Positions 6,205-37,013 of a DNA stretch of 37,279 nucleotides are shown here, one piece after another. Both the position numbers and the translations under genes were made by a program. The notes below the pieces were generated by a model. That model saw nothing but the letters and a program-made list of their open reading frames with translations, searched no databases and was not told the origin of the DNA. Source of the stretch: a virus (Duplodnaviria > Caudoviricetes); IMG/VR virus record IMGVR_UViG_3300037781_000210, positions 1-37,279 of that record; one strand, given 5' to 3'. How positions within the stretch are numbered: the first letter of the stretch is position 1; each line of letters starts with the position of its first letter.

Positions 6205-9200
6205 CGCAGGAACCCCGTGACCGAATAGTTGGAGCTTTCCGCGCCCAACCCGCCCGCGTTCTGCACCTCGAATTTGATCTCGACCGAGGCAGCCGCCACG
6301 CCGTTATTGAGCGTCACCGGCAGAGTGATCCGGCGGGCGTTGGCGTTGAGCAGCCCGGCCTTGGTGATGTTCACGACGACCGTGCCCTGAATGAGCGCGC
6401 GGAACAGAACGTCATTGGGATAATCCGCTGGCGGGTCTGTCAGCAGAAACGACAGGATGCCCTGTGCCTTGAAATCCACCGGGGCCTCGAAGGTGGCAGT
6501 TGCGATGGTGGTGAAGGTCGCGCTTGCGTTCTTGATCTCGCCCGACCCCGCCACCGCAAGCCGCGTGATTCCGTTGGCGACGATGTTCTCGGCCAGGATC
6601 GTGTTGGCGAACAGGTTGTCACCGCTGACCTTGAAATCGCCAGTGACCTCAACCTCGCCGTCGAGGCGCAGATAATCCCCCGACCAGCGCCCTGTGACGC
6701 TTGGACCGGAAATGCCGTCAGCCACGCTAACGGCTTCCCAGACATTCTGACCGTTAAGCCGCATAACGTGACCGGCGACGATGCCGTCAGAGGTCGCCTG
6801 GGCAAAGGCTGTCGCCTCGGCCAATGCCTCGAACGACGCATACTCGGCGCTGATCGTCTGGCTGACCGCCGACACCGCCCCGGCGGCATCCACTTTCACG
6901 GCGGCAAGGTCCGTGATCGCGGCCGCATTGTCGCCTACTTCACCGCTCAGGGTCGTGACCGATGTCGCGAGGCTTTCCAGATCGTCGCCCTGCCCCGTCA
7001 CCTCGGTCTGGAGCAGTTTCAGCGCGTCGGCGGTCGCAAGCCCTGGAATGGCCGACTGCACAAGCGTGACGGCTTCCGACACGATCCTGATCTCCTCGTC
7101 GGTCAGGTCGATCCGCGCGTTCAGGTCCTGGCTGGCCTGTGCCAGTATCTCGCGCTCCTTGATCCGGCCAAGGATCGAGCGCGCCGCCTCCTCGGTGTTC
7201 TGTGCGCCTGACAGCTTGACACGCGAGCGCACCGCGCGGGTCGAGCCGGATTGCACCCGCTCGCCGCCCTCCAGCGTCTCGGCCCGCGTCTCCAGCGCAT
7301 CGACCGCTTCGCCTGTCAGAGTGAGGCCGGTCTGCACGTCATCCACATCGCTCTGCAAGGCGGTGGTGGCACTCGTCAGGCTGACGATGCCATCCTCGTT
7401 CGCCGTGACGCGGGCGTTGGTCTCGTCCAACGCATCCGCCGTGCCCGTGGCCTGCGCCGCCACGTCCGTCAACTCGCCGCTGAGCGCCGTGATGTCCTCC
7501 GCGAGTGCATCCCCCTGCGCGATGCGTGCCGCCGTTTCCGCCGCCACTTCCGCGCTCGACGCGCCGGGTGCGGGGCGACCGATAGCGATCCAGTCGATCT
7601 CAACCCCATCGGGCAGATCGAGGCGGATGCGATCCACGGTGCCCGTCCAGTCCAGATTGACCGTCAGCTGTGCCACGTCCTCCGCGAAATCGGGCTCCAC
7701 CACGTCCACACGGCGCGCGGCGTCGAATGCCTCGCCCTCTCCGGCCCACCAGAACTGCGACGCCCATGTCGTCGCGCCATCGCGACGTATGCGCGCCCGC
7801 ATCTGCCGGTAGGTCTGCGTCGGCACGGCCAGTCCCGAGGGCGAGATGACACCGCTGCCTGTCGCGGGGGCAAGGAAGCCGTCCGCCGTCACACTCGGGG
7901 CCGAGGACACCCCCGTCCAGCCTTCGACCGTGGCATCGAAATGCCAGATCGCAACATGATCGAACTGCGTCACCGTGCCCACGGCCAGCAGCGCGATCTG
8001 ATTTGCCAGCGCCTCGTCGCCGTCGATCCGCGACTGGTCGATGGTCTGCGTCAACGCCTCGATATCGGCGGTGGTCGTTTCCAGCACCTGCACCGATTGC
8101 GCGAGTTGGACCTGTTCGTCGGCCACGACAGTCAGCGCCGCAGACGCCTCGGCCCGCGCGCCCTCGACCTCTGCCACAAGCGTGGCGCGCACCTCGTCAC
8201 GGGCAAGAAAATCGCGCGCCGCGCTGTCGAGAGCAAGCTGCGCCGCCGACTTGATCCGGCTGCGCTCGCGCCGCACCGTGCCCGCGACGGTGAACACCTC
8301 CGAATTGATCCGCGCGATATGCGGCGTGCCGGGTATATCGCCGTCACCGATCGGCGAGATGACCTGCTCAATCCGGTCGAACAGATCTGTCACGGCCTGC
8401 GGCGCGCCCTCATCCCCCAGCACCGCGTCGTGCCGGTCGAAGGCGGTGTCGATCTTGGCCGCGAAGTCGGTCGACAGGTCCGCCGCCGTGAAGCCGCCCG
8501 CGCCGGTCGTGACCGACACCCAGTCCGACCACTCGCCCGGCGCATCGAACAGGTAGCGCGCCCGCACCTCGTAGGTGGTCGAGTGCAAAATCCCGTCATT
8601 AATCTCGATCTCGCCGTCCTCAGTGCGCGCAACGACGCGGGCGACACGATCCAGCCCCGGCACCACCCGGACCTGCACGATCAGCACCAGCGCATCGACC
8701 GGCTGATCGCCGGTCCACTCGACCAGCAGCGCGGCGCGGCGCGACACGCCCAGGCTGTCGCGGATCGACAGGTCGGAGACGATGATCGACGGCGTGACCG
8801 GCGCAGGCAGTGTGCGGCCCAAGCGGCCCACCGGCGCGGGCAGGTCCTGCTCGGATGTCCAGGCCACGTCGCCCGGCTCGCGCTCGCGCACCCTCACGCG
8901 CTGCGTCAGGTTTGCCGGGCGGTCCTCGACCTCGAGCACCTCGAAGACCCTGCCGCCATATCCGTTCTCGGCGCTTGTCCAGGTGATCGCATCGAGCGGC
9001 TCCAGCAGGGCAAAGCTCGGCGGCAGCGTCATGATGTGGTTGCGGAACCGGCGGCTGTCCTTGATGTACGCTTCGAGCAGGTGCTGCGCCTGGCTGTTGT
9101 TCGACACGGCAGGCAGGTTGATGGCGCGCGGCAGGCGGCGGTTGCCGTCCTCCGCCTCCCAATCGAGGTTGATTACCGCGTCCGCTTCCCGGCTTTCCCA

Positions 9201-28109: not shown

Positions 28110-28564
28110 TATGCCGCCTCCAGCCACTGCCGGGCCTCAGCGGGCCAGCGGCGCAGCGCGAAACAGACATAGGCCCCGTTCACGCCACCCTCGGCGTTCC
28201 ACCACTTGCGCGCGGCCCGCTCGGACACGCCGAACGCGACCATCACGTCCCGCAGATCACGGAAATTCGCGCGGATAAAGCTTTGCCACAGCTGCGGCAT
28301 CGCCTTTTGTATCTGATGCGGATCGGCCACGGCCCGGCCCCGCACCGGCCCGCGCGGCACCGATCCCCGCGACAGCGCGGCACGATGCGCGTCATGCGGA
28401 AAATCGGCGGGCAGCGCCCCGGACACAGGCACGGCGGACTTGGGCGCGGCGGAAGATGCGGACACATCCCAGGGCGACACCGCCCCGCCGCCCGTGCCAG
28501 CATCGGGGTATGATGACCCATGCACATGCACAACGACCGATGGCGGCAGGCTGTCCCGGCTCAT
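28109..28564 (-). CDS. CII-position HTH protein
   Basis: Directly after cro; VMVAFGVSERAARKWW HTH; start uncertain. Confidence 0.6.
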   Translation of the reverse strand: MSRDSLPPSVVVHVHGSSYPDAGTGGGAVSPWDVSASSAAPKSAVPVSGALPADFPHDAHRAALSRGSVPRGPVRGRAVADPHQIQKAMPQLWQSFIRANFRDLRDVMVAFGVSERAARKWWNAEGGVNGAYVCFALRRWPAEARQWLEAA

Positions 28565-28764
28565 GCGGCACCTCTGGATGCGCTAAGCGAAGAAATTGCC
28601 ACGCAGCCCTTCGTTTCCTGCTGTATTTTGACTGCCAACGCCAAGCTAGGCGACTTCGAGCCCTTGACTATTTCATTCAAGTAAGACGGCGACACACCTA
28701 CGGCGCTAGCGAATTCACGCTGAGTGCGGTTTGCCGACGCGAGATATTCTTTAAGGCTCATCAT
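28561..28764 (-). CDS. Cro-like Xre HTH regulator
   Basis: TQREFASAVGVSPSYLNEIVKG..PS; divergent from the repressor. Confidence 0.88.
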   Translation of the reverse strand: MMSLKEYLASANRTQREFASAVGVSPSYLNEIVKGSKSPSLALAVKIQQETKGCVAISSLSASRGAA

Positions 28765-28770
28765 CTGGTA

Positions 28771-28826
28771 AAGTTCGCAAAAAGCGAACTTAATTGCAAC
28801 CACAAAAGTTCGCTATATGCGATTAG
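28771..28826. promoter_or_regulatory. Operator pair (OR-like), consensus GTTCGC-N5-GCGAAC
   Basis: AAGTTCGCaaaaaGCGAACTT 28771-91; AAGTTCGCtatatGCGAttag 28806-26. Confidence 0.8.
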
Positions 28827-28858
28827 GCAGTCGCGTCCAATCGTGGCAGATTATAGCT

Positions 28859-29164
28859 ATGCAGCTACGCATTAGAGAACTAAGGAAAAAACGCCGGTTA
28901 ACTGGCGAGATGCTGGCCGACAAAGTCGGCTGCAGCAAAAGTTACATTTCGGAAATTGAGACCGGCAAGAAATTTCCAAGCGGGCGGCTGCTCCAGCTTC
29001 TAGCGCGGGAGCTTCATGTTTCTATCTACGAGCTGATCGACAGCGATGATGTGTCACAGGAGATCATCACACATCTGGAAATCATGAAGTCACTCAGCGA
29101 TGAAGATCGTCGGGCGGTATCGCGTCACGCAGCGTCGCTTCTCGAGAAAGAGCCTCAATCATAG
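28859..29164 (+). CDS. Phage repressor (Xre HTH, ~101 aa, no S24 autopeptidase domain)
   Basis: IRELRKKRRLT...LADKVGCSKSYISEIETGK; likely start MQLRI with no SD (possibly leaderless). Confidence 0.85.
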   Translation: MQLRIRELRKKRRLTGEMLADKVGCSKSYISEIETGKKFPSGRLLQLLARELHVSIYELIDSDDVSQEIITHLEIMKSLSDEDRRAVSRHAASLLEKEPQS

Positions 29165-29240
29165 CGAATAAGTCGCGACGAGAACTGGGGCTAAGGGCTA
29201 TAACCTGCGCAATGAAATCAGCTTCTTCCTCGTAAGACAT
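29094..29240 (-). CDS. Unannotated 48-aa ORF, candidate SOS-induced antirepressor (MSYEEEADFIAQVIALSPSSRRDLFAMIEALSREATLRDAIPPDDLHR)
   Basis: GGGGG SD, upstream LexA box and promoter; similarity to the repressor C-terminus. Confidence 0.65.
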   Translation of the reverse strand: MSYEEEADFIAQVIALSPSSRRDLFAMIEALSREATLRDAIPPDDLHR

Positions 29241-29253
29241 AGCACCCCCAAAT

Positions 29254-29268
29254 GTTCCCCATGCGTTC
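29254..29268 (-). promoter_or_regulatory. Alphaproteobacterial LexA (SOS) box
   Basis: GTTC-CCCATGC-GTTC (GTTC-N7-GTTC), abutting minus-strand promoter TTGACC-18-TACCCT (29269-29298). Confidence 0.75.
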
Positions 29269-29276
29269 AGGGTAAG

Positions 29277-29312
29277 AAAAAAGGCGAGCGTTGGTCAACA
29301 ACTGCTCGCCTT
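29277..29312. terminator. Hairpin terminator between the convergent repressor and lipoprotein genes
   Basis: AAGGCGAGC...GCTCGCCTT with an A-tract on the left (U-tract on the minus strand). Confidence 0.65.
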
Positions 29313-29930: not shown

Positions 29931-29985
29931 TAGTTCGCCATGGGCGAATTTTATTATTGCAATTTTGTTCGCCAAATGCGAACTT
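29931..29985. promoter_or_regulatory. Operator pair (OL-like) around TTGCAA -35 of the rightward early promoter
   Basis: TAGTTCGCcatggGCGAATTT 29931-51; TTGTTCGCcaaatGCGAACTT 29965-85. Confidence 0.8.
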
Positions 29986-30019: not shown

Positions 30020-30853
30020 GGAGACCCGACATGCAGACGCCCGACCACATCGCGGATCTGCTCAAGCGCGGCGCGCTGTTCGTTGTGAACCACAGCGCAG
30101 GCAAAGACAGTCAGGCGATGACGATCATGCTCAGGCAACTTGTACCCGCCGCGCAGCTGGTCGTGATCCATGCCGATCTGGGGCGCGTCGAATGGGCGGG
30201 CAACCTCGATCACATCCGCGAAACCATCGGCGATCTGCCGCTTCTGGTCTGCCGTAACCCGAACAAGACCTTCCTCGAAATGGTCGAGCATCGCGGCATG
30301 TGGCCAAGCCCCAAGCACCGCCAATGCACCAGCGACCTCAAGCGCGGCCCGATCGAGCGCACAATCCGCCATTACCTCAAATTGCAACCCGAGCATGGCG
30401 GGCTTGTCGTGAATTGCATGGGCATCCGCGCTGATGAAAGCGCCGATCGCGCGAAGCGAACACCCTTCCGCCACAACGCCCGCAACAGCAAGGCGGGCCG
30501 CGAATGGTATGACTGGATGCCCGTCTTCGACTGGACTGAGGCACAGGTGTTCGCCGCCATCGCCGAGGCAGGCCAGACGCCGCATTGGGCCTATGCCGAG
30601 GGCATGACGCGGCTGTCCTGCGTGTTCTGCATCATGGCAAGCGCCGCCGACCTGCGCACCGCCGCCAGACTCAATCCAGACCTCTATCTCGAATACGTCG
30701 AGACCGAGAAACGCATCGGCCACACCCTGTCCATGTCTGGTCGCGGTCTTGAGGAGGTGACGGGTATCGCCGCCGCCCCGAGGGCCAAGGCTGCGTAATC
30801 ACCGCCGACCGATTTCCGCGAAATGACAACTATTGGAGACCCGACATGCAGAC
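30020..30853 (+). repeat. 19-bp direct repeat GGAGACCCGACATGCAGAC (RBS plus start) bracketing the PAPS-reductase-like gene
   Basis: Copies at 30020-30038 and 30835-30853. Confidence 0.9.
30031..30798 (+). CDS. PAPS reductase family (PP-loop) protein
   Basis: SAGKDS PP-loop, RQCTSDLK, GIRADES, RLSCVFC. Confidence 0.88.
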   Translation: MQTPDHIADLLKRGALFVVNHSAGKDSQAMTIMLRQLVPAAQLVVIHADLGRVEWAGNLDHIRETIGDLPLLVCRNPNKTFLEMVEHRGMWPSPKHRQCTSDLKRGPIERTIRHYLKLQPEHGGLVVNCMGIRADESADRAKRTPFRHNARNSKAGREWYDWMPVFDWTEAQVFAAIAEAGQTPHWAYAEGMTRLSCVFCIMASAADLRTAARLNPDLYLEYVETEKRIGHTLSMSGRGLEEVTGIAAAPRAKAA

Positions 30854-35273: not shown

Positions 35274-36248
35274 ATGAGCGACCAGACCAAGATCGAATGG
35301 ACCGACGCGACGTGGAACCCGATCACGGGCTGCACGCTGGTATCCGAGGGGTGCCGCAACTGCTATGCCGCCACACTGGCCGCGACCCGGCTCAAGCACC
35401 ACCCCAGCCGCGCCGGGCTCGCCCGCGTCAACGCGGCAGGCGAGGCCAAATTCACGGGCGAGGTGCGCCTCAACGAACAGTGGCTCGACCAGCCCCTGCG
35501 CTGGCGCAGGCCGCGCATGATCTTCGTCTGCGCGCATGGCGATCTGTTCCACGAGAACGTGCCGGATGAATGGATCGACCGGGTGTTCGCCGTCATGGCA
35601 CTGGCCCCGCGCCACACGTTTCAGGTGCTCACCAAGCGGCCAGAGCGGGCGCGCGAATATCTATCAACGCTGCCAGATCGTCACATCACGTGGGGTCCAC
35701 GCCCGATGGGGGCTTACAAGATTTATAGGCGCGCCGAGGCAGTTGCCTCTGATCTTGGATCAAAATACGGAGGTGTTGCATTCGCATCGCTGCTCAATAA
35801 CTCTCTGCCCGACAACTTTGCTCAGATGCCGGATATCTGGCCCCTTCCCAACGTCTGGCTCGGCACGTCCGTCGAGGATCAGGCCACCGCCGACGCGCGC
35901 ATCCCCCACCTGCTCGCCACCCCGGCAGCGGTGCGGTTTGTCAGCGCCGAGCCGCTGCTGGGGCCGGTGGACCTGCGCAGCATTCATCCCGATGGGCGTT
36001 GGCTTAACTGCAATGTGTTGGAGGGCACATGGGATGACGGCGAACATATTGGCGCCGACCCCGCGATCCTCGACTGGGTCATCGTCGGCGGCGAGAGCGG
36101 CCCCAAGGCCCGCCCCATGCACCCCGGTTGGGCGCGGTCCCTGCGCGACCAGTGTCAGGCGGCGGGCGTGGCGTTCTTCATGAAGCAAATGGCGAAAAAG
36201 GCCGCGATCCCGTCTGACCTCATGGTGCGGGAATTTCCAAATGGCTAG
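35274..36248 (+). CDS. DUF5131 (Gp37/Gp68 family, radical-SAM-like three-Cys) protein
   Basis: KIEWTDATWNPITGC-x6-C-x2-CYA, FQVLTKR, FVSAEPLL, WVIVGGESG. Confidence 0.9.
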   Translation: MSDQTKIEWTDATWNPITGCTLVSEGCRNCYAATLAATRLKHHPSRAGLARVNAAGEAKFTGEVRLNEQWLDQPLRWRRPRMIFVCAHGDLFHENVPDEWIDRVFAVMALAPRHTFQVLTKRPERAREYLSTLPDRHITWGPRPMGAYKIYRRAEAVASDLGSKYGGVAFASLLNNSLPDNFAQMPDIWPLPNVWLGTSVEDQATADARIPHLLATPAAVRFVSAEPLLGPVDLRSIHPDGRWLNCNVLEGTWDDGEHIGADPAILDWVIVGGESGPKARPMHPGWARSLRDQCQAAGVAFFMKQMAKKAAIPSDLMVREFPNG

Positions 36249-36651
36249 AGGCAAGCACGGCAATCACGCCAAGGCGTCCGCGCAACACCGATGGAGGCCC
36301 GGAAGTCGCCCCGGCAGCACCGGGCACGTCAAGGTTCGCGTCGGCAAGGGCCATCCGCTTGCCGACCCCAACGGCTGGGCCTACGAGCATATCGTCGTCT
36401 GGGTAGCCGCAGGAAACCCACGCCCGGCAAAAGGCGAGATTCTGCATCACATAAATGAAGACAAAACCGACAACCGCATAGCCAATCTGCGCCTTATGAC
36501 ACGCGCGGATCACAACCGCCTGCACAACGCTGACCGCTGCCGTTGCCCAAAGACCGGCAGGCTGCTCAGCAAAGCCCGCGCAGGCCGCACCCTCGACGGG
36601 CGCGAGTGGAACGAGGTGCCCGCCTCTGCGGCGCAGAAGAAGGGTGAGTGA
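36241..36651 (+). CDS. HNH endonuclease (HNH_3)
   Basis: YEHIVV...HHINEDKTDNRIANL...H. Confidence 0.85.
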   Translation: MARGKHGNHAKASAQHRWRPGSRPGSTGHVKVRVGKGHPLADPNGWAYEHIVVWVAAGNPRPAKGEILHHINEDKTDNRIANLRLMTRADHNRLHNADRCRCPKTGRLLSKARAGRTLDGREWNEVPASAAQKKGE

Positions 36652-37013
36652 TGCCTAAGCGCGTCCGCATGACCCGCGCCAAACCGTGGCGACACCTGCA
36701 CCCCGACGCGGTGATCGTCGATCGACGCTCGCACTGGGGTAATTGCTTCGCGATCGGAGCGCCCGGCGTGCCGGATGCAGAGACCGCCGTTGCCTTGTTC
36801 CGCGCCGCGATCGTGCTGTGCGATTACTCAAACACCTGCGTCGCGGCGCGGCCTTCCCTGATCGTGCATCATGTCATGGCCGCCATGCCCGGCCCGGTGC
36901 CGCGCCTCGATGAAATCCGGCGTTACCTGCGCGGGCTCGACTTGGCATGCTGGTGCCCCCTCGATGCGCCCTGCCATGCAGATGTGCTGCTTGAACTAGC
37001 GAACAAGGACTGA
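36651..37013 (+). CDS. DUF4326 protein
   Basis: VDRRSHWGN.F...LRGLDLACWCPLDAPCHADVLLELAN. Confidence 0.85.
   Translation: MPKRVRMTRAKPWRHLHPDAVIVDRRSHWGNCFAIGAPGVPDAETAVALFRAAIVLCDYSNTCVAARPSLIVHHVMAAMPGPVPRLDEIRRYLRGLDLACWCPLDAPCHADVLLELANKD

Follow-up and report, generated by a model that had tools for sequence, protein, structure and literature searches.

A candidate LexA-controlled antirepressor gene convergent on the short repressor of a temperate phage with a predicted Rhodobacterales host

Described antirepressor switches and the immunity cassette of the phage

The SinI-SinR pair is a chromosomal biofilm switch that is not known to be gated by LexA, and the SinI-type dimerisation domain constitutes a Pfam family. 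In the part of the preprint of Kabel et al. covered here (10.1101/2025.11.23.689978), SinR of Bacillus subtilis (1b0n) is described as an HTH repressor with a short helical tail and SinI as a small helical antagonist mimicking the oligomerisation domain. The same part deals with the Bacillus arbitrium phages of the phi106 type, in which AimX binds the C-terminal oligomerisation domain of the repressor and blocks DNA binding. Their repressors have 80-140 aa, the small ORF overlaps the repressor gene in some cases, and a start-codon mutant of phage phiW23 indicates that the antisense transcript has little role. Antirepressors under host LexA are also described for the Gifsy phages, namely GfoA and GftA, small proteins which inactivate a non-cleavable repressor (PMC3121763), and Tum of coliphage 186 and Ant of SPC32H are cited as such in a paper that lists LexA-using phages (PMC9437464).

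The stretch of DNA analysed here (the window) is a whole virus record of 37,279 bases and has genes for an integrase, capsid, portal, terminase and lysozyme; it therefore represents a temperate phage. A Rhodobacterales host is predicted, since its repressor has its closest named relatives in that group (Roseovarius (72%), Pseudosulfitobacter, Sulfitobacter, Roseinatronobacter and Cereibacter). The immunity cassette is lambda-like, with a cro gene, a repressor gene and two operator pairs, and it has the following features:

28561..28764, minus strand: divergent Cro-like HTH gene, from HTH family matches
28774..28823, no strand: two palindromic operators TTCGC-N5-GCGA(A/T) between cro and repressor, at 28774 and 28809, 35 nt apart
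28859..29164, plus strand: short Xre/CI-like repressor, 101 aa, with an HTH domain and two predicted tail helices
29094..29240, minus strand: small ORF, 48 aa, candidate antirepressor with two predicted helices, from sequence, conservation and codon signal
29244..29249 (about), minus strand: G-rich ribosome-binding site, with a G-rich stretch at the same place in related loci
29254..29268, minus strand: LexA-type box, a GAAC-N7-GAAC direct repeat that follows the -10 element immediately
29269..29298, minus strand: predicted promoter TTGACC-18-TACCCT (TTGACC at 29298-29293, 18 nt, TACCCT at 29274-29269)
29277..29312, minus strand: terminator-like hairpin and U run, with the -35 element in the loop
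29368..29808, minus strand: gene of 146 aa, phrog_3152 (unknown function), in the cassette upstream of the small ORF
29934..29982, no strand: second operator pair on the far side of the cassette, before the other early operon, at 29934 and 29968, 34 nt apart

With one mismatch permitted, the operator palindrome has 10 matches in the window against 3.0 expected, a number reached in 0 of 100 shuffles. Operators were found on both sides of the cassette in seven of the eight related loci examined, with L103 having the first pair only. The 146-aa gene is also present in L001 but was not seen at the same place in most other relatives, which carry varied genes there, and it does not appear to be a fixed part of the module. 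Its start, judged by eye, resembles a signal peptide with a lipobox. The gene could be involved in superinfection exclusion.

The only Pfam matches of the repressor are to HTH families and its tail consists of two predicted helices, which bears out its original description as an HTH with a short helical tail and no S24 domain. No S24 domain, as possessed by lambda CI-like cleavable repressors, was detected by Pfam in the 101-aa protein. The repressor itself had no match in searches of a phage and a plasmid collection. Many database entries of the repressor family (homologues P0006-P0023) have an N-terminal extension of 28-34 aa that corresponds to translated operator DNA (window 28817-28858), while the invariant Met of the family is the Met at 28859; the extended starts look to have been mis-called. 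There is no clear SD upstream of 28859, and for this reason the repressor message may be leaderless.

Elsewhere in the window, an in-frame TAA (22348-22346, minus strand) interrupts the large terminase gene and splits it into frames of 150 aa and 401 aa, suggesting either a decayed gene or an assembly error. The early region (30031-30798 and 35274-37013) has PAPS-reductase-like, DUF5131, HNH and DUF4326 genes, possibly a DNA-modification set.

Like the aimX-aimC-aimL loci of the phi106 type, as presented in the part of the preprint covered, the window combines a LexA-type site, a small convergent ORF, a short single-HTH repressor that has no autocleavage domain and a divergent cro-like gene. 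In extended arbitrium modules the small ORF that converges with the repressor gene has 29-80 aa and, in the phi106 type, follows a LexA site; the 48-aa ORF of the window falls within this size range. The novelty originally claimed for the module is thus reduced, as its layout is already that of phi106, and what stands is a Rhodobacterales variant differing from the arbitrium phages in its alphaproteobacterial direct-repeat LexA box and its hosts. No description of the module in Alphaproteobacteria was found in the literature searched, a body of work with most subscription journals outside it. No aimR-like or aimP-like genes were seen in the cassette, where the 146-aa gene is all that lies between the small ORF and the far operators. 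A profile of the peptide family matched no AimX chain in the PDB. In addition, this peptide resembles the end of its own repressor at family level, a statement not made for AimX in the part of the preprint covered.

As with the LexA-regulated antirepressors, a predicted host LexA motif lies over the promoter of the small ORF, and a terminator-like hairpin before the LexA-controlled promoter is a feature common to the Gifsy phages and the window (PMC3121763). The Gifsy antirepressor genes, however, are reported there to belong to a dinI operon remote from the immunity region, whereas the candidate of the window is tail-to-tail with the repressor gene. With regard to SinI, its Pfam family gave no match with the repressor or the peptide (E <= 0.1) or with 20 members of the peptide family (E <= 1), and no SinI or SinR chain was among the seven PDB matches at E <= 10. 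A fold search with the repressor model ranked SinR (1b0n) second and the complex of the phi106 repressor with AimX (9sf2) fourteenth. Both matches are through the HTH, that to SinR having an rmsd of 10.9 over the full length. Going by these comparisons, the module belongs to neither the arbitrium nor the SinI family but most likely works like them.

The small convergent gene and its LexA-type box

The 48-codon minus-strand ORF (29240-29094) was found with its SD and ATG exactly where the original prediction had placed it, overlapping the last 71 nt of the repressor gene and leaving codons 1-25 outside it. Conservation of the ORF and the box in relatives had been named beforehand as a test. Both are present in all 12 loci with a close repressor relative, about eight of them distinct, these being loci with full-length repressor matches of at least 53% identity (L053, the same contig as L001, was left out). 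Counted from the start nearest to the SD, the convergent ORFs have 48-56 codons. Over codons 2-23, eight loci (L103 and L009 left out) gave differences of 0.49, 0.35 and 0.66 at codon positions 1, 2 and 3 respectively (permutation p 5e-5). Variation in codons 34-48 falls on the third position in the frame of the repressor, for which reason this part is regarded as passive. The working part of the ORF would therefore comprise about codons 1-33, the remainder being antisense to the repressor tail. From the way in which the codons outside the overlap evolve, like those of a protein gene, the small ORF is judged to be a real and conserved gene.

With the peptide as a single query, a one-residue variant was the sole match, while the profile gave 19 matches at E <= 0.001 among 1.84 billion proteins. 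Thirteen of these are short (48-90 aa); the six others are long repeat-like proteins that were judged chance helix matches and kept out of the alignments. Among 401 genomes of the order, the profile had a strong match in its own source only, together with 11 weak ones (E 6e-4 to 8e-3), and the family is rare in this set. Longer or fused forms of the peptide (159-2000 aa) were not found, which is weak evidence. In two other assemblies, among the 40 of 100 differences listed, one falls in the stop codon and leaves a stop, and another, in codon 24, is silent.

The promoter TTGACC-18-TACCCT and the GAAC-N7-GAAC box behind it (GTTC-N7-GTTC on the plus strand) likewise lie at the coordinates originally predicted. 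Taken singly, neither stands out. The promoter fails a generic sigma-70 scan, and the box has two matches in the window against 0.81 expected, a number reached by 22 of 100 shuffles, so that the box alone in the window is within chance. The second match (1761-1775), also within chance, falls within a reading frame of 157 aa close to the integrase. In the relatives, TTGAC occurs at the same distance in seven of the eight distinct close loci, being missing from the Cereibacter group, and the half-sites of the box are kept while the 7-nt spacer is changed, the box of L103 being inverted. In a Cereibacter prophage that has no TTGAC element (L009, 4327-4301), the box is followed by a third GAAC half-site. 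The box, the promoter and the likeness of the peptide to the repressor are each weak alone, and it is conservation that lifts all three above chance.

GTTC-N7-GTTC is the LexA motif of Alphaproteobacteria in the part of PMC8565304 covered, as the original prediction had it, and the same box was found before lexA in G001 and before recA in G001 and G003, that is in all three of the starts located by script out of six loci fetched. The box over the promoter of the small ORF matches this type and is a predicted LexA site. The hairpin upstream of the small ORF (29312-29281), which adds to the elements originally named, has a folding energy of -19.1 kcal/mol (z -5.9, 0 of 200 shuffles) and, as modelled, would halt read-through out of the upstream gene; in L001 a hairpin (z -3.4) lies upstream of the -35 element.

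Recurrence of the module and family-level resemblance between peptide and repressor tail

A scan was made with a DNA pattern drawn from the window's own family (-35 element, box with 7-nt spacer, and SD), and the layout of short repressor, convergent small ORF and LexA-type box recurs. The pattern gave 100 viral loci with 71 convergent ORFs, 70 of which were submitted to Pfam. In 18 of the 100 loci there was a convergent HTH gene, its end lying 32-133 nt past the box; three of these 18 are contigs used to draw the pattern. S24 was not among the families listed for the 18 HTH proteins, which are too short for such a domain. A control with a 6-nt spacer gave at least 121 loci with 76 ORFs and an HTH gene in 0 of 121 among the matches listed. 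In loci with at least 600 nt downstream and a GC content of at least 0.5, HTH genes were present in 17 of 41 with the 7-nt spacer against 0 of 34 with the 6-nt spacer, the latter among the matches listed. A second pattern was scored with a model based on the first matches and gave 24 of 92, with many contigs shared with the first set. In the 401 genomes of the order, a strict pattern matched four times, three of these being the module and one lying before a long gene, which we take to be that of a ribonucleotide reductase. By these scans, the layout is general and not bound to the repressor family of the window. The first DNA pattern tried was discarded as too loose, its single HTH gene in 120 loci (narrow model) being a duplicate of L316.

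The module is also found in cultured phages. Five Paracoccus phages induced by mitomycin C are described in the part of Decewicz et al. covered (PMC6536676), with an S24 domain only in Pyei1. The four others (Pthi1, Pben1, Pkon1 and Psul1) all have the module, with a perfect GTTC-N7-GTTC 55-80 nt beyond the repressor stop and, behind a G-rich SD, a convergent 53-75-codon ORF which the records leave unannotated. The ORF starts at 7432 in Pben1, 9508 in Pkon1 and about 7619 in Psul1 (record coordinates, plus strand), and at position 1906 of L636 on the minus strand in Pthi1. Pyei1, on the other hand, has no perfect box beside cI; the box some 180 nt away, within another gene, is degenerate. Perfect boxes number two per 24 kb in the three non-cleavable Paracoccus phages counted and likewise in Pyei1. 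The module is also present in Pan4 and Mae-JY02 (L637, L638; ON968455, PP395635), which were deposited with cyanobacterial hosts. The alphaproteobacterial LexA box of this module points to co-cultured Alphaproteobacteria as their likely true hosts. For two Sulfitobacter phages propagated with mitomycin, the switch proteins are given as unknown in the part of Basso et al. covered (PMC7305329). In NYA-2014a a convergent ORF of 61 codons accompanies a degenerate box, and in pCB2047-A a perfect box seems to lie inside a small reading frame and not before it. By pairwise score, the peptide and repressor are not significantly alike in any of the four Paracoccus pairs or in either Sulfitobacter pair, while the Pan4 pair has p 0.002.

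The original prediction had aligned the core of the peptide with the repressor tail. For the window pair itself this did not hold (score 19, shuffle p 0.78), and the resemblance of the candidate antagonist to the tail helices is seen at the level of family profiles. A profile of 21 peptide sequences gives an ungapped alignment with residues 66-94 of the repressor (HHalign 91%, score 27.9, against 8.4 +/- 2.3 in column shuffles, 0 of 200 reaching it), and it matches the whole repressor alignment at 80%. The match rises to 94% against the tail profile with the first 25 residues only, which lie outside the overlap; an antisense artefact, which had been discounted originally, is thereby rejected. 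AlphaFold2 places helices at residues 65-78 and 81-96 of the repressor and at 3-15 and 18-40 of the peptide, and the two predicted helix pairs have their turn in register. The repressor tail is presumably an oligomerisation surface. A two-helix amphipathic hairpin is nevertheless a generic shape, which counts against specific mimicry, and a fold search with the peptide model gave no match at E <= 0.001. A short viral contig (L002, 1058-1111) has 18 residues with 83% identity to the repressor tail, the HTH part being unmatched.

In a wider set of 38 pairs from 12 tail families, the small ORF overlaps the repressor gene in every pair, and the selection would have accepted ORFs that do not overlap. 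Peptides score higher with cognate than with non-cognate tails overall (p 0.005 and 0.007 over the 12 families), with pairwise p < 0.05 in only 13 of the 38 pairs and the cognate tail the best match in two families by BLOSUM and three by profile. These three are the family of the window and two with repressors ending close behind the HTH, in which a PLDF-like or DLN-like motif from the final HTH helices recurs in the peptide. The codon-position signal is also present in one of these latter two (p 5e-5). In the other tail families a helix-turn-helix pattern alone is visible by eye, and peptides of one family score nearly as high against the tails of others. Pairwise BLOSUM scores were rejected as proof of mimicry for the window and most of the helix-pair families.

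Proposed mechanism, alternatives and meaning

The product of the small ORF is probably a decoy, released from LexA control, that breaks up repressor oligomers. The steps set out here are predicted from sequence, conservation and the linkage of the two genes. In the lysogen, host LexA would occupy the box that follows the -10 element, holding the small gene off, while the hairpin would block read-through into it. DNA damage would remove LexA, as in the known SOS pathway, and allow the peptide to be made. It would then take the place of a second repressor tail, leaving the repressor unable to oligomerise or to hold its operators, a step suggested by the profile likeness and by AimX-AimC and SinI-SinR. 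Both early operons would open and the prophage would be induced.

It is quite unlikely that the LexA-controlled convergent transcript is itself the effector, lowering repressor synthesis by antisense pairing or polymerase collision, with the peptide secondary. The promoter does point straight into the repressor gene, and the overlap in 38 of 38 pairs, when non-overlapping ORFs were admissible, also fits such a role. The strong codon-position signal outside the overlap and the retention of SD and start argue against it, as does the likeness of the peptide to the repressor end, which points to selection on the protein; in phiW23, moreover, the antisense transcript is of little role in trans or in cis, according to the part of the preprint covered (10.1101/2025.11.23.689978). 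The module had originally been read as double-acting, and the antisense half of that reading finds no support in this comparison.

An SOS-induced peptide could instead have another role, tuning or strengthening repression or targeting Cro, the repressor of another prophage or a host protein. This seems unlikely given that the gene adjoins a non-cleavable repressor in mitomycin-induced phages that need some route to induction, and given the fixed tail-to-tail linkage with unrelated repressors; a helix pair with no DNA-binding domain would also be expected to poison an oligomer rather than aid it. Such a role is nonetheless in keeping with a cognate preference detectable in only three of the 12 families, with the nearly equal scores of peptides against the tails of other families and with the action of Gifsy antirepressors on non-cognate repressors, as described in the part of PMC3121763 covered. 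Binding of the box by a factor other than LexA, or an ORF that is only a side effect of antisense sequence and promoter conservation, is very unlikely. The half-sites alone are conserved, in either orientation and at a fixed place behind the -10 element, the operators of the phage are a different palindrome, the 6-nt spacer control gave HTH genes in 0 of 121 loci among the matches listed, and the coding signal has p 5e-5. These outweigh a single box within chance in the window, a promoter failing the generic scan and the perfect box of pCB2047-A apparently lying inside a small frame.

As to the origin of the candidate decoy gene, the homologous stretches of peptide and tail meet head to head at about 29144, as expected after an inverted duplication, and residual DNA symmetry at p <= 0.05 is present in two of nine loci (L342 0.007, window 0.05). 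Selection for compactness would yield the same head-to-head geometry. We tentatively propose, as a possible but rather doubtful generalisation, that this is a standard unannotated switch of non-cleavable Rhodobacterales prophages, in which each antirepressor mirrors the pairing surface of its own repressor, having originated on more than one occasion through an inverted duplication of the repressor 3' end and then been wired to LexA. At least two surfaces would have been copied, the C-terminal helix pair in the window and the last HTH helices in the PLDF-like and DLN-like families.

What makes the module valuable is that it spans unrelated repressors, comprises two kinds of mimic and provides named genes in inducible phages that are in culture. 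Mitomycin C induces many prophages of roseobacters and Paracoccus despite repressors incapable of self-cleavage. For the four Paracoccus phages with a non-cleavable repressor the finding supplies a named candidate gene, and for one Sulfitobacter phage a candidate, all of these phages being in cultured strains. The module can also be detected by a short DNA pattern in the absence of any protein homology. If the mirror-copy origin is true, a phage could acquire, in a single step, an inhibitor fitted to whatever new repressor it has.
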